Positions 1-25,515 of a DNA stretch of 64,000 bases are shown here, piece after piece. Below the pieces are notes generated by a model that was not told the origin of the DNA, did no database searches, and saw only the letters and a program-made list of their open reading frames with translations. Every line of letters begins with the position of its first letter. The first letter of the stretch is position 1. Source of the stretch: Fibrobacteria bacterium (GTDB lineage Bacteria > Fibrobacterota > Fibrobacteria > UBA11236). Where the stretch lies: assembly GCA_041746255.1 (NCBI GenBank), contig JBGTHM010000097.1, positions 29,302-93,301 on the forward strand, given 5' to 3'. A program made the translations under genes and the position numbers.

Positions 1-1059
1 TACCGGAAGTATATCTCCGGGGTGGATATCGATCCGGCTCCATTGCCGCCCCACGGTTACCGTCGCTCCGAAAGTTCCCTCTCCGGTTGCCACCGCTTCG
101 GTTGCGAATAATACCCGCACAGCAAGGGAATCAACCGTTGCCCGGGCATAAAATGAAATCGTTCTGACCTTGGAAAAATCATACGCTTCCGGACCCAAAT
201 TCACCCGGTAATGGGTATTCGGGCGGATATTTATCCGTAAACTCTTTCCACGATAGGCGCCTATGGAACTCAAGGAAAGCTCCGCCGAAGCATTCTCCAC
301 GGGCAGCACGGATTGGGGAGTACTATTGATGAAAACCCGTCCTGCAGTGAGGATTTCGGCCGGATAGAGTATTCCACGTAAGGCGCTGCGCGTCTGTGTC
401 GACTCGAAATCGAAAAGCACCACCGAGTCGGGGGGAACATGCACGCTATCCAATTCCAGTAACTCGCCAGGTACCAACCTGAAACTCTCCTGAAACCAGA
501 AAACCGGCATACCGTCCATTTCTGCGTGACCAATCAAAGAGTAATTGCCCGGCAATACGGGAGGAAATTGGAAAACACCCTCTTCGCCGACTATGGCCCG
601 GTAATGGGTGCCCGAAAGTCCCAATGAATAGACTTTTTCAAAATCGCCGTGCATTCGGCCTGCAATTCGGGCAGCTTCCACCAAATCGATTTTTCCGGGT
701 CGAAACCCGCCATCCACCTCCGGGACCACCGGGAGAATGGACTGCCGCATGGAATCAGCTGATTGAAGACTTAAAAAGGATTCTCCCGCAGGCACATCGC
801 TGATTAGGAACCGCCCTTTGGAATCGCTCAGGGCTTCCGCAATTACCGGCGCGGTCGATTGAACTAGAGCCGTACTCGTATCAGGCACGAATCGGCCTTT
901 CCGAAGGGAGACGCGAGCTCCGACCAACGGCTCTCCGGAGCCATCGTAAACATGGGCGACGATTTCATTGGGTTGATCGGTACCCCCGCCGGCAACGCGC
1001 TCGCACCCGGCTATTAGCAAAGTCAGTAGCAAGAAACCCAGTAGGGAAAACCGAATCAT
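1..1059 (-). CDS. Surface lipoprotein (runs off the window edge): carboxypeptidase-regulatory-like domains plus C-terminal CBM11/CIA30-like domain
   Basis: Not in the ORF track. Manual reading shows a stop-free frame from ATG at 1059 (ATGA overlap with the upstream stop) to base 1. Starts MIRFSLLGFLLLTLLIAGC-ERVAGGGTDQPNE (lipobox); later VLFDFES...YDFSKVRTISFYARA. Confidence 0.8.
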   Translation of the reverse strand, partial: MIRFSLLGFLLLTLLIAGCERVAGGGTDQPNEIVAHVYDGSGEPLVGARVSLRKGRFVPDTSTALVQSTAPVIAEALSDSKGRFLISDVPAGESFLSLQSADSMRQSILPVVPEVDGGFRPGKIDLVEAARIAGRMHGDFEKVYSLGLSGTHYRAIVGEEGVFQFPPVLPGNYSLIGHAEMDGMPVFWFQESFRLVPGELLELDSVHVPPDSVVLFDFESTQTRSALRGILYPAEILTAGRVFINSTPQSVLPVENASAELSLSSIGAYRGKSLRINIRPNTHYRVNLGPEAYDFSKVRTISFYARATVDSLAVRVLFATEAVATGEGTFGATVTVGRQWSRIDIHPGDILPV

Positions 1060-1928
1060 TTTCCCGGCTCTCCCTTTTCATCGCTGTCCCTTAGGTTCTG
1101 GGTCAAGGGATATAATTGGAGATTCAGTGAAAATATTCCACTGACATCGGACTCCTCCATCGCACGGCTTAAAATCTTTCTCCGGACTTCATCCAATAAC
1201 ACCGAAATCTCCTCGAAATATTTTTGCCCGATAGCTAAGGTCGCATAGCTCAAATGCCTTTGCGATTTAGGCATCATCTCACCCGCTTGAATGGCCTTGA
1301 ACAAAAATTGCGACCTCACGTTTTTGATGATATGGGGTGGACAACCTTCTCCGCTCACTACCGGGTCGGCCTGGGTAAACCGATTTCCGGAGATTTTCTT
1401 CAAAAATCCGGTCTCGACCAATAAAGCGACTGCCTCCTTGGCTTCCTTCTCCGTAATCGGGGGAATCAACATCTGGCCTAGTTTCCGATAATTGCCTTTC
1501 CAATCGCCGTATACGGCCGCTTCCCGGATAACCTGATAGATCCAACTGGAAAAATAGGAGAATTGTTCCTCCTGAACCCGATAGAACGCCAGTTTTCGAC
1601 GAAGCCGATTCATTTCCGTCAAAAACTCCTGTTTCTCCAAATACACTTCTGCCTGATTATAGAGGACCAGATACTGGAAATATTCGATTTCCAGTTTGGA
1701 TAGGCTCATGGCCTTCCCGATTTTCAAAACCGATTCCAGGGTCAGGTTCCTTTCCCCACGGATGACTTTATCGCAGAAACTATGAGACTTAAAACCAGCT
1801 TTTTGGGCGAAAAAACGGTAAGAGAAGCTTTTTTTCTCCCGCTTTTGCCCTTGAAAATACTCGCTGAGAAAACTCCGGTAATTATCGAAAGTGAAAATTG
1901 ACCCCATTTTCGGATTTTCGGCGCTCAT
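1056..1928 (-). CDS. TIGR02147 family protein (N-terminal HTH, C-terminal DUF4423-like)
   Basis: IFTFDNYRSFLSEYF...FSYRFFAQKAGFKS...GERNLT...YFQYLVLYNQA...LNLQLYPLT is the family pattern. Confidence 0.9.
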   Translation of the reverse strand: MSAENPKMGSIFTFDNYRSFLSEYFQGQKREKKSFSYRFFAQKAGFKSHSFCDKVIRGERNLTLESVLKIGKAMSLSKLEIEYFQYLVLYNQAEVYLEKQEFLTEMNRLRRKLAFYRVQEEQFSYFSSWIYQVIREAAVYGDWKGNYRKLGQMLIPPITEKEAKEAVALLVETGFLKKISGNRFTQADPVVSGEGCPPHIIKNVRSQFLFKAIQAGEMMPKSQRHLSYATLAIGQKYFEEISVLLDEVRRKILSRAMEESDVSGIFSLNLQLYPLTQNLRDSDEKGEPGK

Positions 1929-2135
1929 AATACCATAATCTTAACGCCTAAATCAATTTATGAGTACGGATATTGTCTAAAAATAAGACTATAAGGGGTT
2001 TTTGAGGGTGCCTACGTGTCCTTTAGGGTACAAAATTTTAATAATTGGCATATGGGTAGGGTTGGAGGGCGGTACATTCATTGCTCTATGGTAAACTTGA
2101 AACGCGAACATCCACCGCAAGAAAGGGCTCCTTCC

Positions 2136-3212
2136 ATGCTTAAGCCTATTTTCTTGTTCCTAATAAGTATTGCATGCATCACCCAAGCCATAGCCCAGGT
2201 TCCCATGGGGAGAATGGCCTATATCGCCGACGGCAATTACCGCGATTCGGATGATATCGCCGCTACCCCGGTGGGCCTGGCTATTCTCCGAGCCATGGGG
2301 CTGGAAAAGAAATTGGTCCATTATTCCCATTCCTGCGACCTCAAACCGGGTTCAGGTGATCCCGGCGGCCCTTTTCGTGAAAAGGAAATGCAGATTAGCA
2401 GCGACGGTACCGCAGAACGCTGGGGCGGTTTCGAACATATCACTTTCTTCAATGCCCTCCGGGCCACGGACGCCACGGTCAATGATCTTGTCAAGCACAT
2501 CAACAACTCGACCGAAGCGGATCCACTCTGGATTATCGAGGCAGGCGAACCGGACATCATGGTTATGGCCCTGAAAAAAAGCGACCGCGCCAAGGCGAAA
2601 TTCGTGCACATCATCACCCACCATCCCGCGAACGACAAGGGCGATACCTATAACCTTGAGGATGTTTTTAAGGAAGGTGTCCCTACGGCGAATATCCATC
2701 GCATACCCGATCAAAACACATTGCTCAGAAAAAAGCTGTCCGAATTCCACTGGGCTAGGGACCATAAGGACTCGCGAATCAAATGGCTTTGGGATAGGGT
2801 GAACCTGGCTCAATCTACCGAAATGAAATACCCGCAAATAGTAGGCTGGGCTGACATTTCCGACGCGGGAATGGTATGGTGGTGGGCCACCCTCGATAAG
2901 GGCGGCGATGAAAAATGCGACTTTCCCAAAATCAGAAAATTACTCGAAGACTATGTTGCCAAACCTGTTATGTCGATATCGTTTTCCGGAAACCCGCGCG
3001 GCTTGGAAGTCCATTCCGGAAAGGGTGGTTTCACCATAGTTGCAAGCTCGGAACCTATTCAATTGGAAGTGGTCAATCTACAGGGGAAAGTCATTCATCA
3101 TGAATCCGGTCGCCTGAAAAGCACATTCATTCCCGTTACGGAAAAGGGCATGCACTTTATCCGGCTTTCACAAGGTAATTTCCGCATAAATACGAAATAT
3201 GTTTCCCGGTAA
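2136..3212 (+). CDS. Secreted protein, nucleoside-hydrolase-like fold, C-terminal sorting-type domain
   Basis: Signal peptide MLKPIFLFLISIACITQAIA after a GAAAGGG RBS; ADGNYRDSDD acidic motif; tail VVNLQGKVI...GMHFIRL. Confidence 0.6.
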   Translation: MLKPIFLFLISIACITQAIAQVPMGRMAYIADGNYRDSDDIAATPVGLAILRAMGLEKKLVHYSHSCDLKPGSGDPGGPFREKEMQISSDGTAERWGGFEHITFFNALRATDATVNDLVKHINNSTEADPLWIIEAGEPDIMVMALKKSDRAKAKFVHIITHHPANDKGDTYNLEDVFKEGVPTANIHRIPDQNTLLRKKLSEFHWARDHKDSRIKWLWDRVNLAQSTEMKYPQIVGWADISDAGMVWWWATLDKGGDEKCDFPKIRKLLEDYVAKPVMSISFSGNPRGLEVHSGKGGFTIVASSEPIQLEVVNLQGKVIHHESGRLKSTFIPVTEKGMHFIRLSQGNFRINTKYVSR

Positions 3213-5472
3213 CAAACTATGGAAATCATCGAGTGATAAGTGGATGGACCGAGGCTTATCGGCATCCTTGGGTCTACTGCTATTTTGCGCGGCCACCGCT
3301 TCCAGCTCGGAAATCGATACCCTGACAGCCCGGCTGGTCGGGGTGTGGAGCTTGGAAGAGGCATCGTCCGCGGTATCCGACTTATCCAGCCAAAAATCGG
3401 ACGGAACCTGGCCCGATATCGATTATACCAACCGGGACCGTACCAATTGGATTGTCGCCTCCCATCTCTATCGGCTACGTAGTATGGCGACGGCCTTCAA
3501 CCAGCCTACGCATCCGGCCTACGGGTCCGTGGCAATGAAGAACGGAGTGTTGAAGGGATTGGACGCCTGGTTTGCCAAATCCCCCTCCAGCCAGAATTGG
3601 TTCTGGAACGACATTGGGCCGCAAAACCAACTCGCTCCCATTCTGCTCATTATGAAGCCGTATCTAACGGCTCAGCAATTAAAGAACGGCGCCGAGATTT
3701 TCAAGTATAAAAGTGGGTGGACCGGGCAAAATAAAATCTGGTTCGCCGCTCAACTCGTCTACCGTGGCAGTCTCACAAATTCCCCTTCCGACGTGCAAGA
3801 GGGAGTGACCATTGTGGCGTCGGAAATCCAAGTATCCACCCAGGAAGGCATGCAACCGGAATTCAGCTTCCACCAGCACGGCCCTATGCCGTATAACGCC
3901 AACTACGGATTTTCTTTGCTGCTGACGGTTTCCCCGCTTATGCATGCTACTCATGGCCTATCCTTTGCATTTCCCCAAGCGAAGCAGGATATCCTTATTC
4001 GTTACGTACTCGAAGGCACGCAGTGGCTGTTTCGACGCGGAGATTGGGCCCTCGCCGTCCACGGACGGGAAATCTCACGGCCAGGCGCATCGACAACCAT
4101 GGTGCTTTACGGCGCCGACAAGGCGTTGCAGGGCGCCCTACAGCAACTTCGACGGGTTGCCGGTAATCGTGGTGGAGAAATAGAGGCATTCCTCAATCAT
4201 ATCAAGGGTGGTAACGACGGGGCGCTGGAAGGCAACAAACACTTCTGGCGATCGGATATCATGTCCCACAGGCGGAGTCCCTTTACCGCCTCGCTTCGTA
4301 TGACTTCCACCACCACGGGTAGAACGGAATCTATCAATAGCGAAAATTTAAAAGGGGGATATTTTCCGTTCGGCTCCCTGTTCCTTCAGAGACGGGGAGA
4401 TGAGTACCGGGACATTCGTCCCGTTTGGGACTGGTCTCGGATTCCCGGTGTCACCTCGCCGCATAAAAATGCTACACCTAATGGAACCGTGCAAGGAAAT
4501 ACCCTTTTCGTGGGTGGAGTTTCGGATGGCCAATACGGCGTCGCCGCCATGGACTTGAACCATGACGGAGTGACCGGACATAAAAGCTGGTTTTTCTTCG
4601 ACCGGGAAATAGTCGCACTCGGTTCGGATATCGTAGGGACGGGAAATGATCCGGTATTCACTTCGGTCAATCAGACAGCCGCGCGAGGTGAAGCCTGGAC
4701 CGGCTCATTCGCCGGTAATGGATCCGCCTTGGGAGCCCAGCCGGCACAGTTGTCCGGCAAAGCTTGGGTACACCATGACAGCACGGGATATCTTTTCTGG
4801 GATGCCGAAGCCGTTACAGTTCAAAATGCGAAGCAAACGGGAAGTTGGTCCTTAATCAATGCGAATTATTCCTCAACGAAGGAAACCCGGGATGTTGTCA
4901 GCCTTTGGTTTAATCATGGGGTGAAGCCGAATAAGAAATCTTATGCTTACGCTCTGCTGCCCGGTTTTTCCCGTGAAGAAGTAAAAGTCTACAGCGCATC
5001 ACCCAAGGTGGAGGTGGTCTCGAATACAGCGGCGCTCCAAGCCGTTCGGAATAACGATGCAGGAATCACCGGGATTGCATTTTTCGCAGCCGGAACGGTA
5101 GATGTAAACTCTGATATGCGCATTCGGGTGAGCGCGCCTTGCCTGGCATTGGCCAAATTCCAGGCCGGGAAAGTGGAGTTGACCTTGTCGAACCCTAAGA
5201 AAACCGCTTTGTCGGTAAAGGCCGACCTTCTGTCCGGAACCCAAACCGTGGCTTCCTTGACCTTCGCATTACCCGGAGATGCAGCTAATGGGGGGAAAAG
5301 CACAACTCAGACCTTCGCATACACGGTATCCGCATTGTCCCCCTATCCCAGCGCCGCCCCGTGGCTTAACCAAAACCACGGAAGGATGCCCAGCCCTGTT
5401 TGGAGGGGGTCCTGCGGCTCAGGTTCCGCACTACCCTGCATCTATACCACGGATGGAAAACGGCTGCCCTAG
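3199..5472 (+). CDS. Polysaccharide lyase family 8 (chondroitin AC/hyaluronate/xanthan lyase-like)
   Basis: NWFWNDIG, TGQNKIW, SFHQHG...NYG (catalytic His/Tyr), GREISR, ESINSEN, WDWSRIPGVT, KSWFFFD; signal peptide (start may be 3244). Confidence 0.93.
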   Translation: MFPGNKLWKSSSDKWMDRGLSASLGLLLFCAATASSSEIDTLTARLVGVWSLEEASSAVSDLSSQKSDGTWPDIDYTNRDRTNWIVASHLYRLRSMATAFNQPTHPAYGSVAMKNGVLKGLDAWFAKSPSSQNWFWNDIGPQNQLAPILLIMKPYLTAQQLKNGAEIFKYKSGWTGQNKIWFAAQLVYRGSLTNSPSDVQEGVTIVASEIQVSTQEGMQPEFSFHQHGPMPYNANYGFSLLLTVSPLMHATHGLSFAFPQAKQDILIRYVLEGTQWLFRRGDWALAVHGREISRPGASTTMVLYGADKALQGALQQLRRVAGNRGGEIEAFLNHIKGGNDGALEGNKHFWRSDIMSHRRSPFTASLRMTSTTTGRTESINSENLKGGYFPFGSLFLQRRGDEYRDIRPVWDWSRIPGVTSPHKNATPNGTVQGNTLFVGGVSDGQYGVAAMDLNHDGVTGHKSWFFFDREIVALGSDIVGTGNDPVFTSVNQTAARGEAWTGSFAGNGSALGAQPAQLSGKAWVHHDSTGYLFWDAEAVTVQNAKQTGSWSLINANYSSTKETRDVVSLWFNHGVKPNKKSYAYALLPGFSREEVKVYSASPKVEVVSNTAALQAVRNNDAGITGIAFFAAGTVDVNSDMRIRVSAPCLALAKFQAGKVELTLSNPKKTALSVKADLLSGTQTVASLTFALPGDAANGGKSTTQTFAYTVSALSPYPSAAPWLNQNHGRMPSPVWRGSCGSGSALPCIYTTDGKRLP

Positions 5473-13589: not shown

Positions 13590-15212
13590 ATGCTTAAAAA
13601 ATCTTGCTCGCGTTTTATTGTGGTCGCCGCCCTTGTGCTCGGCCCAGGCGGTTTACTTCCAGTTAAGGCCCAATTGGGACCCATCGAGTTGCATACCGAC
13701 GGCAAAAAGGTATCGCCTTGGGTATATGGAGTAGAGAACTCCGCCAGCCCCTTGGCTCTCGGTTTCTTTTTGAAATCAGGCTATGCTTATGAGAGTAACC
13801 TGTTCGATAGTCCGAATCATTTCCGCAACCTGGGAACCAACCAAGCCCGCCAGTTTCCCTCGTCGGTGAATATGATGCAGGATGGCACAGCTTGGTATTC
13901 CGCTACCGGAGCGGAGATGAACTGGGACTTAGGCCAACATCGATTGCGCTTCATGGCCGCTGCGCAAAACTACCGGGTTCCCGGCAAGGATATGCCAGCG
14001 TTTCTGGACGACGGAAAATTCAACGGCTTGCTCGAATCGCTGGCCGACAAATCCTCCTGGAACCTTTATATGCAGCATCGGTGGAACCTACTCCCTTGGC
14101 TGGAACAACAAACCTTACTCCAAATGGACCGTAATTATGCGAAGAACACCGACATTTTCGGCCGCGCGGCCCTGGGCAATGGTGAAGATTTCCTCCATAA
14201 TGAAGCGACGGTCGAATACCTGGCCAATACACCGGCTCCGCCGGGTTTGGGAAGAGGACAGGCCTCCCTCATGCTTCAGGCCCGTCACCGCGAGTATTCC
14301 CCTTCCATCAAGAACGTCCCATACTGGATGGCCGACTCGATTCTCCTGATTGAAAAAGACGGCCCACTACTGAACGCCTTTAACTTCAACGACACCCTGA
14401 ACGCGGATTACCTGCAATGGCGAGGTCGTCTGCGTCATATTCAAGGCATGCGCCATGGGTTTTCTTCACGCGTGTCATTCGATTTGATAAAACGCGATTA
14501 TTCAGACATGCTGGCTAAACTCATCAAGGACACCACCCGGGTTCCGGCAGTGGATATGGGCGACATTCCCGTGATTCCGATATACAACTCGGACAGCGTA
14601 GTGATTGGCACTATGCCGCCTCCGGGACATCCCAAGCGTTCCCAATCGGAATACCGCGCCTATGCAGGTTTGCAATACGACCCCCCACATGTCAACCATT
14701 TGCGTTTGCAGGTAGGCTGGCAATGGTTAAAGGTAACCGATCCCTATCAGGGTTTTTACGGGTATACTCAACGAGGCCTGTTTGCCTCGACGATTTACGC
14801 GCCTTCGAGTCTGGCCCATATCGAATTGGCCATGAGGGTGAGCCAGCGTACTTATGACGAATTGTTGGCAAACCTGCAATACTGGGCGCCACGCGGAGTC
14901 AATCAAGTGGAATTCAACAACGGCGCGCCCGTAAAAACCGTCACCATCGACGAACTCGGGAATCCCAGGAACATTTACGACATTAGCTACCAAGGGGCGA
15001 CCCGGCTGGCTACCCAATCCGTGGCCGTCAGTTTGCGGGGACAATTGCCGGTATGGCGGAATCTGGCGCTATGGGCCCATATGTTCCTGGATATGCGCAA
15101 CAGTAACCGACCGGATACGGAAATGTTGAGTCGGGAATACTACAACCATCTGGTGGGAGCCGGGATTACCGTATACATGGACTACAATCACAAAAAAAGG
15201 GGTGACCTATGA
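13590..15212 (+). CDS. Putative outer-membrane beta-barrel protein of unknown family
   Basis: Signal peptide ending VKA; SGYAYESNLF, alternating amphipathic strands, terminal YNHLVGAGITVYMDY strand. Confidence 0.6.
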   Translation: MLKKSCSRFIVVAALVLGPGGLLPVKAQLGPIELHTDGKKVSPWVYGVENSASPLALGFFLKSGYAYESNLFDSPNHFRNLGTNQARQFPSSVNMMQDGTAWYSATGAEMNWDLGQHRLRFMAAAQNYRVPGKDMPAFLDDGKFNGLLESLADKSSWNLYMQHRWNLLPWLEQQTLLQMDRNYAKNTDIFGRAALGNGEDFLHNEATVEYLANTPAPPGLGRGQASLMLQARHREYSPSIKNVPYWMADSILLIEKDGPLLNAFNFNDTLNADYLQWRGRLRHIQGMRHGFSSRVSFDLIKRDYSDMLAKLIKDTTRVPAVDMGDIPVIPIYNSDSVVIGTMPPPGHPKRSQSEYRAYAGLQYDPPHVNHLRLQVGWQWLKVTDPYQGFYGYTQRGLFASTIYAPSSLAHIELAMRVSQRTYDELLANLQYWAPRGVNQVEFNNGAPVKTVTIDELGNPRNIYDISYQGATRLATQSVAVSLRGQLPVWRNLALWAHMFLDMRNSNRPDTEMLSREYYNHLVGAGITVYMDYNHKKRGDL

Positions 15213-16156
15213 AACGCATCATACAACTACAAGCCTTGGCATTGCTATGCCTGACGGGCGCGGCCACGGCCGATGTGGTTCTGGATAATATGCAGGGCTC
15301 AGGGAATCGTAACACCGCCGGCGGCGTCATTTTCGTAGTGGCCGACACCGCGGGCGGCTCTACCTGGACCTATCCCGATATCGGTTTTTCCTATTGGAAC
15401 CTGGCCGATGGCGGACCGGCTCCCGGTGCCGGTAAAGTCACCTATTTGCATGGTACTGTCGGCGGAAAGGGCGATTTCCCCCATTTGACCTATGGCATGT
15501 ATTTCGACAATCCCAAATCGGTGCTGGATTTGAGCTGGCTAACCGGCATCGCCTTGCGCGTGCGCGGTGTGGGCCTTTGGCGCACCAAAATCAAATGCAA
15601 TATCATCGATTCCTTGGCCATCGCGGATTTGGGCCGCAAGGAGGATCAGGTCGCATGGAAATATTCTTTAACCGGCTTGAGTTCCACCGAGTTCCAATGG
15701 GTGGTGATAACTCCCGAGCAACTTTCGTCCAATGTCGGCGCCATGAACCTCCTTTTGACCCAAAAAGGAATCAGCAAGCGCGACGTGCTTAAGACCGCCT
15801 GGAAATATTATATCCAAACCGATGGCTATACTTCCGCCGATGCGGGTACCGAGGCATGGATCCAGATTTCCGACATCATTTTTCTGGGACCTCAAAATTC
15901 CATTGGCGCATCCATCGTGAAGCCTACCCCGGCTCAATGCGCGGAGATCGGCGCCTGTAGTGGAGGCAGCTCCATTCTGTCAAGAGGCATTTCTTTTTCA
16001 AACAGGATGCCCACGCCCCAATCGCATATTTTCGCATTGGACGGTCGGTTCTTAGGAAAGCATGGTTCTCTCAGTCAAACCGCATCTTTGCCTAAGCTAT
16101 ACCTAAACAAGGATGAGGGAAAAACCTCCTTGCATTCTTCACTGTCAGGACGTTGA
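15209..16156 (+). CDS. Secreted CBM11/CIA30-like protein with short C-terminal tail
   Basis: Signal peptide; VVLDNMQG, LDLSWLTGIALRVRG, IQISDIIFLG; tail IFALDGRF. Confidence 0.6.
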   Translation: MKRIIQLQALALLCLTGAATADVVLDNMQGSGNRNTAGGVIFVVADTAGGSTWTYPDIGFSYWNLADGGPAPGAGKVTYLHGTVGGKGDFPHLTYGMYFDNPKSVLDLSWLTGIALRVRGVGLWRTKIKCNIIDSLAIADLGRKEDQVAWKYSLTGLSSTEFQWVVITPEQLSSNVGAMNLLLTQKGISKRDVLKTAWKYYIQTDGYTSADAGTEAWIQISDIIFLGPQNSIGASIVKPTPAQCAEIGACSGGSSILSRGISFSNRMPTPQSHIFALDGRFLGKHGSLSQTASLPKLYLNKDEGKTSLHSSLSGR

Positions 16157-16162
16157 ACCCAA

Positions 16163-16927
16163 GTGAATTTTCCGAAACTGTTTTCCTTTTTGGTATTGGG
16201 GTCTGCCCTCTCCTTCTCGGACGTCCTTTTGGACGACATGGAGGGAGAGCGCCTCAACCAGGCCCGCTCCGGCGGATACTGGTTTTTGATTTTGGACGCC
16301 AAGTCCCATCAGGATGCCAACTCCCAACTGATCTTTCCTCCCGATCTCAATTTCAGATTCCATGATACGGCAGGTTACGGAGGCAGTCGCGGCGCCCGGA
16401 TTCATGTGAAGATAGGTTCGGGCTATCGTTATCCCTTCGCCGGCATCGGATTCAATATCGATAATTTCCGGGAACCCGTCGATTTTCTCAAAGTGCATAG
16501 CGTGCGCTTTCTGGCTCGCGGCAAGGGAACTTTCCGGCTTAAAATTCGGGACGTTTGGAGTACGCGCCAAACCCCCAATGCCAATTTCGAGCATGACTTC
16601 ATCGTTAGTCCGGAGTGGCAGGTTTTTGATTTGGAAACCAAGGACTTTCGCGTTCCCCGAGGTTCCCCATACCGGCGCGAAGGGAAAACCTGGGAAGACG
16701 TGGCCGATTCGGTAATCAGTTTGATTTTTACCACGGCGTCCTATCAGGACAGGGATGCCGGTACCGAAATCAGGCTGGACTTGGACCTCATCTCCCTGGT
16801 GGGTATCGACTCGGCCGGAGCCTCGACCACACGGCCCCCCAAATATCCCCAGCTAAAATCCAACCGGCATTTGGAACGAGGCATCCGCGAAGAGGATTTT
16901 GACGATGCCGGAAGCTCGGAGTATTGA
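16163..16927 (+). CDS. Secreted CBM11/CIA30-like carbohydrate-binding protein
   Basis: Signal peptide; LLDDMEG...GGYWF, YPFAGIGF, VDFLKVHSVRFLARGKG, EWQVF, LDLDLISLVG. Confidence 0.72.
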   Translation: MNFPKLFSFLVLGSALSFSDVLLDDMEGERLNQARSGGYWFLILDAKSHQDANSQLIFPPDLNFRFHDTAGYGGSRGARIHVKIGSGYRYPFAGIGFNIDNFREPVDFLKVHSVRFLARGKGTFRLKIRDVWSTRQTPNANFEHDFIVSPEWQVFDLETKDFRVPRGSPYRREGKTWEDVADSVISLIFTTASYQDRDAGTEIRLDLDLISLVGIDSAGASTTRPPKYPQLKSNRHLERGIREEDFDDAGSSEY

Positions 16928-20348: not shown

Positions 20349-21385
20349 TATCCAAATATTTTTTGTTCGGAATCCTCCTGATGGGAATCGTCTCAGCCGC
20401 CGAAAAGCTGGACGTATCCTTCGACAACCAGAATTTAGGAACTTATACGCGCTCGAAAATGCGCGTTGAATGGGCCGGTGAAAACTGGGACAACGGCCTG
20501 GGGGAAGGGCGCGGCCGCATCGTAGATGGCGCAAACGCCTATGCCGGCAAAGCGCTGGAAGTCCGCTACCTGGGTGGAAAATTCGGACCCGAAGCGGGTG
20601 TGCAATTCCAGGGGAATTTCACGGCAACAGACGCCGCCACCCTGGAATACCGCGTCAAATTTCCGGCGGGTTTCAAATGGACCAAAGGCGGAAAACTTCC
20701 CGGTTTATGCGGTGGGACTTGCAGCACGGGAGACGAGAATCCAACCGGGGCCAACGGCTGGAGCGCGCGTTATATGTGGAGAGAGAACGGGCAGGCTATC
20801 CTTTATCTTTATCACATGAATTGGACCAACCACGGAGACCAACTCGATCTGAAGCTTTCCGGCGCGAATGTGCGATTCGAGACCGGCCGCTGGCATCATC
20901 TCAAGCAATCCATTAAAATGAACACCCCGGACAAAAGAGACGGCCAAATCATTGTCTGGCTGGATGGTAAAGAGGTGTTACGCACAGCTTTCGTGAAGTT
21001 TCGCTCCGTCCCAACCTTGAAAATCAACAAGGTCTACTTTTCCACCTTCTTCGGAGGCAGCGATAACTCCTGGTCTCCTTCATCGGAACAAATCGCTTAT
21101 TTCGACGACTTTCATATCTATCCCGACAAGCCTTCCAGTGGCCTGGCATTCCAAGCCACCCAAAACGGATTGATCCGCTCCGCAACTCCCGGATGGACCC
21201 GCCTGACCGCCCCATCCCCAGTCGGCACCTGGATTCTTTCGGACTCCCGAGGAAAAACTTTTGGGCGGTACGATGGAGAAGTGCTTTCCCAAGGGAAATG
21301 GATCTCCATGACTCCGGGAAACTATTATTGGCTATGGCATGAAAACAACGCGACGAATCCTGTCAGGACGGTCCCCCACCGTTAA
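20345..21385 (+). CDS. PL14-family polysaccharide lyase with C-terminal sorting-type domain
   Basis: YRVKFPAGFKWTKGGKLPGL, GWSARYMWR, GRWHHL, MNTP, FSTFFGGS; signal peptide. Confidence 0.87.
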   Translation: MISKYFLFGILLMGIVSAAEKLDVSFDNQNLGTYTRSKMRVEWAGENWDNGLGEGRGRIVDGANAYAGKALEVRYLGGKFGPEAGVQFQGNFTATDAATLEYRVKFPAGFKWTKGGKLPGLCGGTCSTGDENPTGANGWSARYMWRENGQAILYLYHMNWTNHGDQLDLKLSGANVRFETGRWHHLKQSIKMNTPDKRDGQIIVWLDGKEVLRTAFVKFRSVPTLKINKVYFSTFFGGSDNSWSPSSEQIAYFDDFHIYPDKPSSGLAFQATQNGLIRSATPGWTRLTAPSPVGTWILSDSRGKTFGRYDGEVLSQGKWISMTPGNYYWLWHENNATNPVRTVPHR

Positions 21386-21416
21386 AGCCGATTCCCCAAC
21401 TCGGGAAGGAGAACTC

Positions 21417-23111
21417 GTGATCCGGCCCACCCAAGCTGAAAAAATCGCACAAGTGCTCGAACGGAGAATCCAGGACGATTCCAGTCCCGTTCTGCCGCCC
21501 ATGCGAACTTTAGCCCAAGAATACCGGGTTTCCTTGAATACCGTTCACAAAGCCGTTGCCCGTCTGAAAAGCCTGGGAATGGTGGAGGTCTACCAGGGCG
21601 GGAAAATCCGGATTCAGGGTCGACATAGCAGCGCCGAATTAGAGTGGCGTCCCAAACCCACTTCTCGCGAATTCATCTATCAATTCGTTCGTGATCGGAT
21701 TTGCAGTGGAGTCTATCCCATCGGCAAACCTCTGCCCAAGGTGGCTTATCTGGCTTCCAGTCAAAATCTTTCGCACCATGCCGTTACGGCTTCTTATCGT
21801 CGTCTGGAAACCGAAAATCTGGCGCGTAAAGAAGGCCGGCTCTGGATGGCCGGTCCGCGACCGCCCAAAGTGGAAGCGGAATTTCTGAGGCAACCCGTAA
21901 TTGTGCTGCTACAATCCCATGAGGATTTTTGGATTCACACGGCTCAGCGCCCGTTTTTCGAATCCTTCTGCCGCAGTTTTCAGGCCGAAATGGAAGCCGC
22001 CGGCGTGCAATTGATGCCCGCATTGTTTTCCGAACGCGGAGAAGCGGGAGGAGGCCTTCCGGCAGGACAGATTGCCGTATTCACTTTGATTCGCTCCTTG
22101 GGGACACGCTATCGGGGCGCTTTGATTCTCAATGCCGCCAAAGAGGTGAGGGACTTGGAAAAGTGGGTACAAGGGCTCTCCCGGTTCAATCGACCGGTAA
22201 TCTGGTTCGACCGCCTTAAAGAAAACCCCAAATTCCGTACCCGCTCCAGCCAATTTACCCGCTGCCATAGCGCCGAGGATCGCGCCGTGGATCAGGTGGT
22301 CACCTTCCTTACCGGCCTGGGGCACCGCCACATGGCGTATGCCGCATTGAGTCGGGAAAAATGGGCCGCTTATCGCGGAGACCTTATCCGGCAGGTTTTG
22401 CGGGAGAGGGTTCCCGGCGGTGAATTGCACCTGGCGGAAAAAGATTCCCGAATTTTTCTGGAAGGGCCGATGCCGCAAAGAATGGCCGCCTTGAAGGCCG
22501 TATCGGAATCGGAAACCGTTCCGGCCGCGGTCCGGAAAGCCATTCGTTTGCTGGCCAAGCTCAAAGATGAGAACGGTGAAAAACTGCCGTGGAAAATCCG
22601 TACGGCCTACAGCGAAGACCCTTGGCAAGGGGTGGCGGCGTTACTGGAAGAAATTGAAGCCGACCCCCATCGCGTACCCCCCCTGCTGGAACTGTTTCCT
22701 TCTTACCGCAACCTGCCCTGGCTGGTGATGCTCTATCCCTTGCTGAGATCCATTTTGGAAAACCCCCTTATTACAGCCATAATCGCACCCAATGACTTTC
22801 TCGGCCATAAACTCAACTACTGCTTAAAAGCCATGGGTATCGCGGTACCCCAGAAAATCTCCCTGATTTCCTTCGACAATCAATGGTTCCTGCAAAGCCT
22901 GCCGGTGACCACGGTGGATTTCGGCTATTCCTATCTCGGGTTCGCGGCTTTCCACCAAATCGCCCAGGATATCGACTTGAAAGTGATTGACGGCAATATT
23001 CCGGCCCAACCCCGGATCATGCACCGGGGATCGGTGGCGGCACCCTCCAAGTTTTACCCGGATCCGGTTGAAATATCAGCCTCCCGGAGAGAGTCCAAAC
23101 AAAGGAGATGA
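21417..23111 (+). CDS. Transcriptional regulator with two GntR wHTH domains and a LacI-type sensor domain
   Basis: LPPMRTLAQEYRVSLNTVHKA and GVYPIGKPLPKVAYLA...HAVTASYRRL; GHRHMAY, TAIIAPND, VPQKISLISFDN, TTVDF. GTG start after AGGAGA. Confidence 0.85.
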   Translation: MIRPTQAEKIAQVLERRIQDDSSPVLPPMRTLAQEYRVSLNTVHKAVARLKSLGMVEVYQGGKIRIQGRHSSAELEWRPKPTSREFIYQFVRDRICSGVYPIGKPLPKVAYLASSQNLSHHAVTASYRRLETENLARKEGRLWMAGPRPPKVEAEFLRQPVIVLLQSHEDFWIHTAQRPFFESFCRSFQAEMEAAGVQLMPALFSERGEAGGGLPAGQIAVFTLIRSLGTRYRGALILNAAKEVRDLEKWVQGLSRFNRPVIWFDRLKENPKFRTRSSQFTRCHSAEDRAVDQVVTFLTGLGHRHMAYAALSREKWAAYRGDLIRQVLRERVPGGELHLAEKDSRIFLEGPMPQRMAALKAVSESETVPAAVRKAIRLLAKLKDENGEKLPWKIRTAYSEDPWQGVAALLEEIEADPHRVPPLLELFPSYRNLPWLVMLYPLLRSILENPLITAIIAPNDFLGHKLNYCLKAMGIAVPQKISLISFDNQWFLQSLPVTTVDFGYSYLGFAAFHQIAQDIDLKVIDGNIPAQPRIMHRGSVAAPSKFYPDPVEISASRRESKQRR

Positions 23112-23320: not shown

Positions 23321-24217
23321 ATGGATACCCAGAAATCAGCTGGCCCGGAGGGTGAACCTCCCGGGTCGGATTCCCCCAAACTTTCCCTGTTCGGCTATAC
23401 CGATTTCCGCGCTTTCCTGAAAGAGTGGTATCGGTTACGCAAAGAAAAAGATCCGAAATTTTCTTATCGTAAACTGGCCGGGCTGGTGGGATTCAAGTCA
23501 GCCGGACATTTCAGTCTCATCCTTGGCGGCAAAGCCAATCTATCCCTGAGACTGCTGGATCGGTTTGTACGCATTCTGGAAATGAACCAAAAGGAAACCG
23601 ACTATTTCCAGGCTTTGGTTCTGTATAATCAAGCCAAGGGATTCGACGAAAAAAAACGCCAATTCGAGCGAATGCGTTCCTTTCAGGAGTTCCGGCTACA
23701 GGTTATCGAACCGGCTCAATACGAATTTTTCGCGAAGTGGCATCATTCCGCCGTGAGGGAGGCTCTGGCTATCATCCCATTCCGGGACGATTATGCTGCG
23801 CTCGCGCGGATGATTGAGCCCTCCATCACACCCGAAGAGGCGAGCAAATCCGTAGCGTTGCTTTGCCGTTTGGGGATGGTGGTACGCAATGCGCAAGGCG
23901 TGCACCGGAGGGTGGAGCCGCTGCTCTCCTCGGGGCCAGATGCGCCTGCGGTAACCGTCAATGAATTCCTCGACCAATCCCTGGAATTGGCCCGTAACGC
24001 TCTGGCCAGAATGTCCCGGGAAGAACGCATGTTATCCGCTACCACTTTATCGATTTCTTCACAAACCTTCGGGATTATCCGCGAGGAAATCCGGACGCTT
24101 CGGAAACGCATTCTGAATCTGGCGAAAAAGGACGAAAGTCCTGATCGGGTCTACCAGATACAGCTTCATGCTTTTCCGCTTTCACAGCGTTTCGTGCCGA
24201 AAGGAAAAAACTTATGA
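23321..24217 (+). CDS. TIGR02147 family protein
   Basis: LFGYTDFRAFLKEWY...FSYRKLAGLVGFKS...GKANLS...YFQALVLYNQA...WHHSAVRE...VYQIQLHAFPLS. Confidence 0.9.
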   Translation: MDTQKSAGPEGEPPGSDSPKLSLFGYTDFRAFLKEWYRLRKEKDPKFSYRKLAGLVGFKSAGHFSLILGGKANLSLRLLDRFVRILEMNQKETDYFQALVLYNQAKGFDEKKRQFERMRSFQEFRLQVIEPAQYEFFAKWHHSAVREALAIIPFRDDYAALARMIEPSITPEEASKSVALLCRLGMVVRNAQGVHRRVEPLLSSGPDAPAVTVNEFLDQSLELARNALARMSREERMLSATTLSISSQTFGIIREEIRTLRKRILNLAKKDESPDRVYQIQLHAFPLSQRFVPKGKNL

Positions 24218-25515
24218 GCATATGGATGAAATTTCTGACGGCGATTTTTTCCACCGGGTTTTTCTTCGCCGGTTGTCAACCGGAGCGGCTTGCCGGAGGC
24301 GGAGGCAGTGAAGTCGAAGGCATTACAGTGGAAGGAGTCGCGTATTATCCTACGGGTATGCCCGCAAGCTCGGCTCGGGTCCGCATCCGACCTTGGGATT
24401 ACCTACCCTTGGATTCGGATACGACCCTAGGAGCGGGCGAATGGCGCTTTGACCTGGCAACCGACTCATCGGGACGTTTCCGTGCGGATGGTTTAGTACC
24501 CGGCGAATACCTTCTGGAAGTAGACGATGGTTTGGACTGGGGGATGGTCGGCAACATCCGGGACGAAGACCTCGATGGTGTGGTTCGCATTTCCGCCGAA
24601 ATGAAACCCCATGGATCGGTTTACGGAAGGGTGACCGATTCTACAGGTGATGGAATCGCCGGCGCCTGGGTAGCCGTCTATGGCCTGGAGCGGGCTACCG
24701 AAACCGATGGGAACGGGTTTTATCAACTGCAATCCCTACCCGCCGGCAATCTGAACCTGCGCGCGATTGCAGCTGAAGCGGGGCTGGCTTCCCGCGAAAA
24801 ATCCGGCGTAAAGGTCGAGCCGGAGAAAGCGACCCAAACCAATTTCGTCGTGGAGCGTAGTCTGACCAACGGTTTGATCGGGCATTGGACATTCGACGGA
24901 GGCGATGGTCCGCTGGCAGCGGAAGCCCATGGAAGCACTGCACGCGTGGATTTGAAAAGGTCCAATTGGGGGCCGGGGGTGATGGGCGCAGCGCTTGACC
25001 TGACCGGGCAATCCACGGTGTATGTCCCCGAATCCAAATCGGCGATGTTCGCAATCGACAAAGACTCCGATTTTTCCGTATCCCTCTGGTTCCGCACCAG
25101 CGGGGACTCCGGGGCAGCGAAGCGAACCGTATTGATAGACTCCCGATCCCAACGCTGCCCATCAGGCTATGGGTTACGCTTGTTGGCTAACGGGACGGTG
25201 GAATTCGTGGTACGGGGACTGGACCAAGCAAAAATATGGAAGTTGCGCAGTCCCGAAGGGCTGACCGACGGAAGTTGGCATCATGTGACGGGAATGAAAG
25301 TAGCCGATTCCCTGAAATTATGGGTGGATGGAATTCCGGTCGCCACGGGACCCGGTTCCACCGGAAAGCTGGCGACGGGGAATCGCTTGCATTTTGGCAA
25401 CCAGGAGGGTCTCACCGAATTTTTCATGGGTTCCCTGGACGAAATTAGAATCTACAACCGGGCATTAACCAAAAGGGAAATAATGGAATTGGCGGTGCTA
25501 CCCAAAAGCAAATAA
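24214..25515 (+). CDS. Surface lipoprotein: carboxypeptidase-regulatory-like domains plus LamG/concanavalin domain
   Basis: FFFAGC-QPERLAGGGGSE lipobox; TDSSGRF, ETDGNGFY; GLIGHWTFD, DFSVSLWF, WHHV, GSLDEIRIYNRAL; ATGA overlap with TIGR02147. Confidence 0.85.
   Translation: MSIWMKFLTAIFSTGFFFAGCQPERLAGGGGSEVEGITVEGVAYYPTGMPASSARVRIRPWDYLPLDSDTTLGAGEWRFDLATDSSGRFRADGLVPGEYLLEVDDGLDWGMVGNIRDEDLDGVVRISAEMKPHGSVYGRVTDSTGDGIAGAWVAVYGLERATETDGNGFYQLQSLPAGNLNLRAIAAEAGLASREKSGVKVEPEKATQTNFVVERSLTNGLIGHWTFDGGDGPLAAEAHGSTARVDLKRSNWGPGVMGAALDLTGQSTVYVPESKSAMFAIDKDSDFSVSLWFRTSGDSGAAKRTVLIDSRSQRCPSGYGLRLLANGTVEFVVRGLDQAKIWKLRSPEGLTDGSWHHVTGMKVADSLKLWVDGIPVATGPGSTGKLATGNRLHFGNQEGLTEFFMGSLDEIRIYNRALTKREIMELAVLPKSK

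Follow-up and report, generated by a model that had tools for sequence, protein, structure and literature searches.

The window analyzed here is a 64,000-nucleotide stretch of a Fibrobacteria bacterium genome (contig C97 of the source genome, labeled G000). At its start, on the reverse strand, lies a pair of genes: a 290-aa regulator of the TIGR02147/DUF4423 family (1056..1928) and, directly behind it, a lipoprotein (1..1059). The stop of the first and the start of the second overlap as ATGA (1056-1059), as the initial annotation of this DNA had read it. The lipoprotein gene extends 153 nt past the window start; the window holds the first 353 of its 403 aa, and the complete gene is present in the genome (locus L001, 11848-13059). 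We find that such pairs form a cassette that is real and phylum-wide. Strong computational evidence suggests that each regulator directly recognizes its own partner lipoprotein by a nine-residue tag and acts on a regulon in trans.

The regulator scores 223.8 bits on TIGR02147 (NCBIfam; cut-off 50) and is thus a member of the family. DUF4423 matches residues 113-275 with 78.9 bits (Pfam; cut-off 30), and HTH_3 matches residues 28-77 below threshold. An AlphaFold2 (AF2) model of the protein (pLDDT 89) has three domains. The first is an XRE/Cro-type helix-turn-helix (HTH; residues 14-98, 1635..1889), the predicted DNA reader based on fold matches and on the relation of its helix residues to upstream palindromes; in the model it resembles C.AhdI, HigA and DdrO (Z about 8) as well as phage repressors. 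An ArsR-like winged helix follows (residues 110-195, 1344..1601; assigned from fold and couplings) and then a C-terminal domain (residues 196-277, 1098..1343; assigned from column analysis and couplings). The latter comprises two long helices and extended segments, unpaired in the monomer model, and may have a role in dimerization. Sequence searches of solved structures gave weak HTH matches only for the regulator, and Foldseek gave nothing at E 0.001. Translation may start at the ATG at 1907 and not at 1928, where a -10-like box overlaps the ATG. The promoter-like element to which this would belong (TTGATT-18-TATTAT, 1927..1956, reverse strand) is weak, as shuffles yield one such site by chance.

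Judged by its sequence, the partner is a lipoprotein, with an N-terminal hydrophobic segment and a lipobox cysteine (signal peptide and lipobox LIAG-C19, 1003..1059) that is invariant in a 103-row alignment. The lipobox is followed by ERVAGGGTDQPNE. The tag, GGGTDQPNE (residues 24-32, 964..990), directly precedes the first strand and is of low confidence in the AF2 model (pLDDT 90; low-confidence stretch at residues 21-30). Two transthyretin-like CarboxypepD_reg domains (436..963; Pfam match and model) form a stalk, which carries a CBM11/CIA30-like beta-sandwich tip (residues 210-394, 1..432, cut by the window edge; fold and profile). The best match of the modeled tip is CBM11 (1v0a; Z 15.1, rmsd 2.6, 143 aligned), with CIA30/NDUFAF1 (7zkq; Z 14.0) 1.1 Z units below, and the lipoprotein family profile matches CBM11 at E 8e-9. 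The modeled folds of regulator and tip are consistent with the domains that the initial annotation had proposed.

Recurrence of the cassette within the genome and the phylum

The source genome has 22 matches to the family, 21 of them full copies above the cut-off, and all 21 are directly followed by a lipoprotein-like ORF. By comparison, 67 of 1111 tightly coupled gene pairs in this genome pass a similar rule, a background obtained with a crude ORF caller and a loose lipobox definition. The family is present in 20 of 21 relatives, where the number of matches reaches 70; in one genome we counted 79. Sampling the top-scoring copies per genome, we found a partner start within -40 to +60 nt of the regulator in 179 of 186 cases in a first set and in 160 of 171 in a second set from six further genomes (339/357). 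The first set comprised unique full-length regulators, three more having been dropped as truncated, and three of its 179 partners are doubtful; from the second, five truncated copies and six already present in the first set were removed. The ATGA overlap occurs in 83 of the 179 pairs. Named relatives of the regulator are mostly from Fibrobacterota; there was no plasmid match for the unit, a metagenome scan yielded two distant loci only, and a single-protein scan of genome contigs gave no match. Thus, we conclude that the pairing of regulator and lipoprotein is far above chance. Together with the HTH fold, the varied tips and the predicted physical link described below, this supports the proposal that a cytoplasmic DNA-binding regulator and a variable-tip lipoprotein are one functional unit.

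The partner bodies vary. Among 41 scanned, we found LamG, DUF2341, PKD, ThuA, beta-helix and fn3 domains, or nothing known; CBM11-like tips add to this range. A hydrophobic 19-mer that could form a membrane helix follows the cysteine in only 2 of 291 mature partners (the copy 1 maximum is 1.15), and a membrane-helix-like segment was found in none of 291 regulators. No conserved third gene was seen beside the cassette. Similarity among partner bodies follows the regulator winged helix (rho 0.43) and not the C-terminal domain (0.04), possibly reflecting genome composition.

Several single loci bear on the parts of the cassette. In a 1046-aa database protein, P0017, a DUF4423 regulator is joined to an entire lipoprotein precursor that has the tag as well as PKD and Kelch domains. 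This is probably a stop loss, as the protein is known from a single contig and retains both the internal start and the signal peptide; it was the only fusion from a search for longer proteins, and such searches are weak. A 206-aa ORF (L022:3343-3960), by eye similar to extracytoplasmic function (ECF) sigma factors, ends 3 nt before a TIGR02147 gene. Two secreted proteins of the lyase island in the window (15209-16156 and 16163-16927) are stand-alone relatives of the CBM11-like tip; they score 33 and 110 bits against the profile of the lipoprotein family and have no Pfam match. A domain of the same family (27.5 bits) forms the extracytoplasmic part of a membrane protein of GGDEF type encoded immediately upstream of a cassette (L047:4149-5471), and the tip fold is therefore also the input of a conventional transmembrane sensor.

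Co-evolution of the lipoprotein tag with the regulator

The tag is a nine-residue motif, G-G-[GS]-[ST]-[ED]-T-[GPTE]-N-x (positions numbered 0-8, written t0 to t8), located at a median of 8 residues behind the cysteine. A profile trained without the source genome detected it in 16 of the 21 partners of that genome and in 2 of 251 other lipoprotein-like ORFs. Position 7 is Asn in 65% of tags, followed by Pro in 10%; copy 1 has Pro-Asn-Glu. Tag variants sort by regulator clade, even where the partner bodies are unrelated. Tag similarity correlates with that of the regulator C-terminal domain (rho 0.22, partial 0.19) and hardly with that of the N-terminal HTH (0.04), and neither the signal peptide nor the residues flanking the tag track the regulator. 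This test used 146 pairs below 70% identity, 30 of 176 having been dropped for low tag score or redundancy.

A column analysis flagged regulator residues 190, 204, 228, 246, 249 and 253. From the first set we fixed eight rules linking regulator and tag residues before the six new genomes were fetched. Six of the eight held in 120 held-out pairs less than 60% identical to anything seen, with odds ratios (OR) of 6.6-63; examples are tag Gly with L/M/F253 (OR 63), tag Asp/Glu with R/K249 (OR 13) and tag Glu/Asp with R/K246 (OR 8). Phylogenetically independent pairs, taken from a tree of 278 rows built without the candidate region, support the association at residue 253 (10.2 same versus 0.1 opposite, p 0.002), and those at 249 (p 0.004), 190 (p 0.012) and 246 with Gly (p 0.03).

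Mean-field direct coupling analysis (DCA) of 291 pairs (effective number 260) placed tag couplings at ranks 4, 5, 6, 8, 9, 12, 14 and 15 of 18,953. Fifteen regulator-tag pairs exceeded z 5, versus none for signal-peptide or post-tag columns, and the N-terminal HTH contributed one pair (z 5.2). When each tag was swapped for that of the first, second or third nearest-neighbor regulator, 0, 1 and 0 pairs remained above z 5. Two halves of the data, analyzed separately, returned the same top pairs.

The couplings have a geometry. Those between residues 226, 228, 229 and 231 and t7, t5, t4 and t2, respectively, have a constant index sum, the register of an antiparallel strand, and 246-t6, 249-t4, 253-t2 and 256-t1 follow one helix face. 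Residues 186-196 run alongside, winged-helix residues 125, 135 and 136 meet t1 and t3, and the tag Asn is coupled to 225/226. Coupled residues are chemically complementary, acids pairing with Arg and Gly with Leu. The pattern predicts a groove formed in the C-terminal domain by strand 225-231 and the helix face 246/249/253/256, with contacts to the tag from winged-helix residues Y125, R135, E136, Q186, V190 and G193. For copy 1, tag positions 2, 4 and 6 are predicted to face L253, R249 and D246, and positions 1, 3, 5 and 7 to face E136-Q186, Y125-R135, Y228-R205 and H225-L226. Conservation of the groove is slightly lower where tags score low (5.05 versus 4.76 of 6), a difference that is uninformative.

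Because the coupling replicates in six held-out genomes and vanishes with neighbor tag swaps, we consider it very probable that the regulator binds the tag of its own partner directly, at a groove where winged helix and C-terminal domain meet. The Gly-rich stretch described as a tether in the initial annotation is present and would be a recognition tag and not just a tether. The residue-by-residue co-evolution of the tag with the two regulator domains, and the contacts that it predicts, are new here. One clade (L006, L013, L026) has a tag that begins at the lipobox (C-[YF]-TEVGN), with matching regulator changes at 186, 190 and 253.

Operator-type sites and the putative regulon

Upstream of copy 1, the stretch 1929-2135 separates the regulator from two overlapping genes on the forward strand. 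The first (2136..3212) is a predicted target encoding a secreted protein with a C-terminal tail like that of type IX secretion system (T9SS) substrates (weak TIGR04183 match) and no Pfam match. The second, predicted to be co-regulated, is a PL8 polysaccharide lyase (3199..5472; Pfam Lyase_8). The sole motif match in the window lies in this intergenic stretch, a predicted 18-bp pseudo-palindromic operator of YGT-x4-N4-x4-ACR type (2015..2032, not assigned to a strand), 87 nt from the ATG at 1928 and 103 nt from that at 2136. The site travels with the cassette, since 16 of its 18 positions are identical upstream of the orthologue in the related genome G004, though the divergent neighbor there is a housekeeping-type gene.

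Palindromes are a general feature of these cassettes. Perfect 17-bp palindromes precede 67 of 279 cassettes (20 in shuffles), and perfect inner arms of the family-wide grammar YGT-x4-N(4-6)-x4-ACR precede 53 of 279 (about 1 in shuffles). As read from a table and not from a statistic, the half-sites sort with the HTH recognition helix across cassettes. Close matches to the type of site at 2015-2032 precede paralogues with a Ser-His recognition helix, four in the source genome and two of the 30 examined in G004. In the upstream regions of a close-orthologue clade (L066-L078), repeated TGTGTAA elements replace the palindrome.

The motif also occurs far from cassettes. We derived the pattern from four cassette sites alone, allowed up to one mismatch, and iterated a tail profile from the tail of the divergent gene itself. 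The motif then preceded 20 of the 125 tail-bearing secreted genes that lie away from cassettes, versus 28 of 3259 other genes (OR 22). Control patterns with spacers of 3 and 5 nt matched 0 of the 125, and a spacer of 6 nt matched 4. Scanning of 24 proteins from 20 hand-picked motif-bearing regions revealed alginate-lyase family members (3), other lyases (2, one of them a second gene), Sde182-like proteins (3), GSDH (5), sulfatases (2), 3-keto-disaccharide hydrolases (2), ThuA (1), CBM35 (1), PA14 (1), proteins with Ig-like domains only (2) and proteins with no domain match (2). The motif-bearing genes related to the divergent gene are the Sde182 nucleoside-hydrolase-like ones. The divergent gene itself has five more paralogues in the genome, and homologues in 3 of 295 other genomes.

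G004 has 29 strand matches to the motif versus 14 for a control pattern. Among the 18 loci examined there, 12 sites are intergenic and 10 of these 12 precede a signal-peptide ORF, a count in which one ORF is doubtful and two sites share the same genes. Site-bearing genes include Sde182-like and Pel9A-like genes and a homologue of the divergent gene of the window, which has no cassette in its 1.5-kb flanks; another paralogue lies about 8 kb off. Of 32 source-genome genes homologous to the G004 targets, 10 have the site, versus 23 of 300 random signal-peptide genes, based on a broader pattern tuned after the source-genome sites had been seen.

Taken together, these patterns make it probable that the XRE domain binds YGT-x4-N(4-6)-x4-ACR palindromes and that the Ser-His-helix paralogues, including copy 1, use the type with the 4-nt spacer found at 2015-2032 and before dispersed secreted enzymes. 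The predicted sharing of this operator type between copy 1 and dispersed tail-bearing secreted genes is new here; in a second genus, the motif precedes genes of a similar kind. The initial annotation had suggested that copy 1 may control the divergent PL8 operon; since the site is conserved and its motif is also found upstream of dispersed genes for secreted glycan enzymes, such control, of the divergent gene and of the PL8 gene behind it, is likely. Both PL8 genes of the genome (C17:9319-11256 and the one in the window) lie within about 2.5 kb of a cassette.

The lyase island as a whole is a different matter. The site is absent from three other intergenic stretches of the island and from the stretch before copy 2, and a gene at the end of the island (21339-23111) encodes a regulator that combines two HTH domains of GntR type with a sugar-binding domain resembling that of LacI. 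This gene likely controls the island genes without a TIGR02147 site, and the idea that copy 1 controls the entire island is not supported. The GntR-type gene as sole explanation of the PL8 operon was dropped after the operator and regulon results.

A second cassette lies beyond the island on the forward strand. Its regulator (copy 2; 23321, or 23294, to 24217) scores 260.8 bits on TIGR02147, and its partner (24214..25515) has a LamG tip (Pfam). The layout is the same, as had been noted; the two regulators, however, are only about 28% identical and fall in different clades of the tree, and the tips differ. The copy 2 tag, GGGSEVEGI (24298-24324), has a Glu at position 6 that would face Arg246, matching the coupling prediction. 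The bracketing of the island by the two pairs, which the initial annotation had noted, is positional only in a genome with 21 full copies. It carries no weight because tail-bearing secreted genes are not enriched near cassettes (9/126 versus 137/3309, p 0.11).

A proposed signaling channel and its relation to known systems

We propose, with a probability of roughly 0.5, that each pair is a two-gene signaling channel. The variable tip of the lipoprotein would meet a ligand outside the cell, upon which the lipoprotein would be cut and a tag-bearing piece imported into the cytoplasm. There the regulator would take up the tag of its own partner by antiparallel strand addition on strand 226-231, the tag becoming an added beta-strand, and would then switch its own cassette and secreted glycan-enzyme genes, the divergent PL8 operon among them. 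We infer that the tip senses a ligand, that the tag is released by proteolysis and imported, and that the regulator dimerizes; the effect of the tag on DNA binding could be on or off. For the transit of the tag we favor ligand-dependent cutting and import, as a proposal, over binding of the precursor, because one global input would be hard to reconcile with so many orthogonal channels that differ in their tips and targets.

A number of observations weigh against this channel or parts of it. Some partners are about 200-250 aa long with no evident tip, and the neighborhood of the cassette has no conserved protease or importer. The first folded strand begins immediately behind the tag, and no clear cleavage motif is seen; in the clade whose tag begins at the lipobox, simple cleavage would not free a soluble peptide because the tag includes the lipid-bearing Cys. 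On a Bdellovibrio-titled contig (L107:2827-4670), the gene that overlaps the regulator by ATGA encodes a secreted LamG protein in which no tag is recognizable. Two of the eight residue rules failed in the held-out pairs, Pro with D246 (p 0.33) and Thr with F204 (p 0.06), and neither 246-Pro nor 204 is significant in phylogenetically independent pairs; there, 246 with an acid and 228 are borderline (p 0.06) and 136 is not significant. The regulon cannot be assigned to copy 1 alone because several Ser-His paralogues carry this site type, and most distant sites in the source genome are closer to the site of the C32 paralogue than to that of copy 1. Motif excess is lacking in G017 (5 versus 4 control matches) and, for the strict pattern, in most genomes of the order. 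Neither a PL8 gene nor the divergent gene occurs in the (mostly 1.5-kb) flanks of any of 354 other cassette loci.

The tip calls for similar caution. Of the CBM11 cleft tyrosines Tyr22, Tyr53, Tyr129 and Tyr152, all but Tyr22 are covered by the alignment, and the family profile keeps only Tyr53; Tyr129 and Tyr152 have no counterpart. The copy 1 tip itself has a 7-position gap at the Tyr53 loop. The CBM11 cleft has four tyrosines including Tyr53, and NDUFAF1 binds a peptide loop with the same cleft of this fold (PMC9668296). The modeled fold is no proof that the tip binds glycans, because the NDUFAF1 cleft takes a peptide and the cleft tyrosines are mostly absent.

The strongest alternative, which we nevertheless consider unlikely, places the encounter before export: the regulator would bind the tag on the unexported precursor in the cytoplasm, and its DNA binding would report the rate of exit through Sec, as in secretion-coupled control of the FlgM or ExsE type; the tip would then serve for adhesion or binding and not for sensing. 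All of the co-evolution evidence fits this equally well. Translational coupling (the ATGA overlap) puts both products together, an import step becomes unnecessary, tags that include the lipobox Cys and tip-less partners are accommodated, and the predicted targets are themselves secreted proteins. What speaks for ligand-specific channels is that up to 79 paralogues per genome, with differing tags, tips and operators, would otherwise share one global input, and that a glycan-enzyme regulon behind partners with CBM11-like tips fits such channels better.

It is improbable that regulator and tag have no contact at all, the pair being a self-regulated unit for one surface lipoprotein and the tag an export or sorting signal that shares ancestry with the regulator by linkage. 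The genes are adjacent, tag variants sort by regulator clade, and the Pro-D246 rule was rejected as a clade effect, all of which linkage would produce. Linkage would also be expected to couple the signal peptide, which is nearer on the DNA and is uncoupled, and to survive the neighbor swaps, which keep ancestry and erase the signal. The constant antiparallel register (226+7, 228+5, 229+4, 231+2), the complementarity of charge and size, the replication in independent halves and the operator-type sites far from cassettes argue against it as well.

We give marginally less credence still to the view that tag binding is real but that some unrelated global regulator acts at the dispersed 18-bp sites, 2015-2032 among them, so that copy 1 does not control the PL8 operon. 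The TGT-N12-ACA geometry of the dispersed sites resembles TyrR boxes, and the proximity to the C32 site, the patchiness of the motif excess among genomes and the unconserved PL8 synteny would all fit. Against a foreign regulator, this site type sits before exactly the Ser-His-helix paralogues in two genomes and follows the family-wide palindrome grammar, with half-sites that change with the HTH helix.

A literal relay of the RsgI or ECF/anti-sigma type, the analogy drawn in the initial annotation, in which a membrane-spanning partner frees the regulator by regulated intramembrane proteolysis, is very improbable: the extracytoplasmic CBM-like tip on a stalk, the fused P0017 and the tag Asn at position 7, with Pro next in some clades, recall it (RsgI has an Asn-Pro autocleavage site; PMC10328401), but the regulator has no sigma factor domain match in NCBIfam or Pfam and is modeled as XRE-HTH plus winged helix, 289 of 291 partners have no membrane helix behind the lipobox, the tag belongs to the part of the partner that the signal peptide sends out, its Asn is explained by the coupling to 225/226, and P0017 has the marks of a lost stop.

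If the proposed channel is true, a large family without a function (up to 79 copies per genome) gains a ligand and a groove to bind it, along with an operator grammar and a regulon. Regulator and exported lipoprotein would be connected without a membrane-spanning link, unlike in all systems compared here, which would be a new way of cell-envelope signaling without a membrane-spanning protein. To our knowledge, this would be the first handle on how Fibrobacterota tune their secreted glycan-degrading enzymes, and the code between tag and groove suggests orthogonal, engineerable peptide switches. More tentatively, and with slightly less assurance than for the channel itself, TIGR02147/DUF4423 cassettes might represent, next to two-component systems and anti-sigma relays, a third general class of bacterial cell-surface signaling. 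Each genome would have dozens of orthogonal channels. In every one, a nine-residue address tag would link a variable-tip sensor lipoprotein to a cytoplasmic regulator, which would recognize it by strand addition after cleavage and import, and together the channels would be the missing control layer for the secreted polysaccharide enzymes of Fibrobacterota.

The family to which the copy 1 regulator belongs by HMM score (TIGR02147, Fsuc_second; DUF4423, PF14394) has no described function in the literature searched, in line with the initial annotation. The accessible parts of those texts contain no mention of TIGR02147, PF14394 or Fsuc_second, and DUF4423 as a table entry only; partner, tag binding and operators are absent from them. 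Titles and opening abstract lines of the broader Fibrobacter literature contain nothing on the family, and no description of the pairing, the tag or the upstream palindromes was found in a coverage that mostly excludes subscription journals.

The N-terminal domain is similar to restriction-modification controller (C) proteins and HigA-type XRE proteins, which likewise have palindromic operators near their own gene; the regulator differs in its 290 aa, its two extra domains, its lipoprotein neighbors and the absence of restriction genes. The tip has the same beta-sandwich as CBM11 of Clostridium thermocellum (1v0a, 6r31) and CIA30/NDUFAF1 (7zkq), from the former of which it differs in the cleft. 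FlgM/FliA and ExsE/ExsC/ExsD/ExsA control a regulator by means of an exported protein, using type III secretion and separate anti-factors. The predicted control of a regulator by binding of an exported protein is alike, whereas here a Sec lipoprotein would provide the tag and one protein the receptor.

Receptors of the RRNPP(A) group have the fold of a tetratricopeptide repeat (TPR) superhelix. The receptor part of the regulator is instead modeled as a winged helix plus an alpha/beta domain: no TPR was matched in Pfam, residues 110-195 match ArsR winged helices, and the C-terminal part was barely covered by the fold search. The likeness lies in the combination of a cytoplasmic XRE-HTH regulator with a short cognate lipoprotein-derived peptide, above all in PrgX/cCF10 as described in PMC7117660: in Enterococcus, Lsp and Eep cleave a lipoprotein signal peptide whose final seven residues become cCF10, and Opp imports the peptide. 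In both, the cognate peptide would go with its receptor, a match known here from co-evolution only; here, it lies behind the lipid-bearing Cys, within the mature protein, and comes from the adjacent gene.

For sigmaI/RsgI of Clostridium thermocellum, PMC10328401 describes multiple paralogous pairs, variable extracellular tips of glycan type and control of secreted polysaccharide enzymes. The cassettes differ from these in having no sigma factor, no transmembrane anti-sigma and no cytoplasmic domain on the partner. They share with them the paralogous pairs, the variable tips and, as predicted, the secreted polysaccharide-enzyme targets, and would thus serve a similar purpose.

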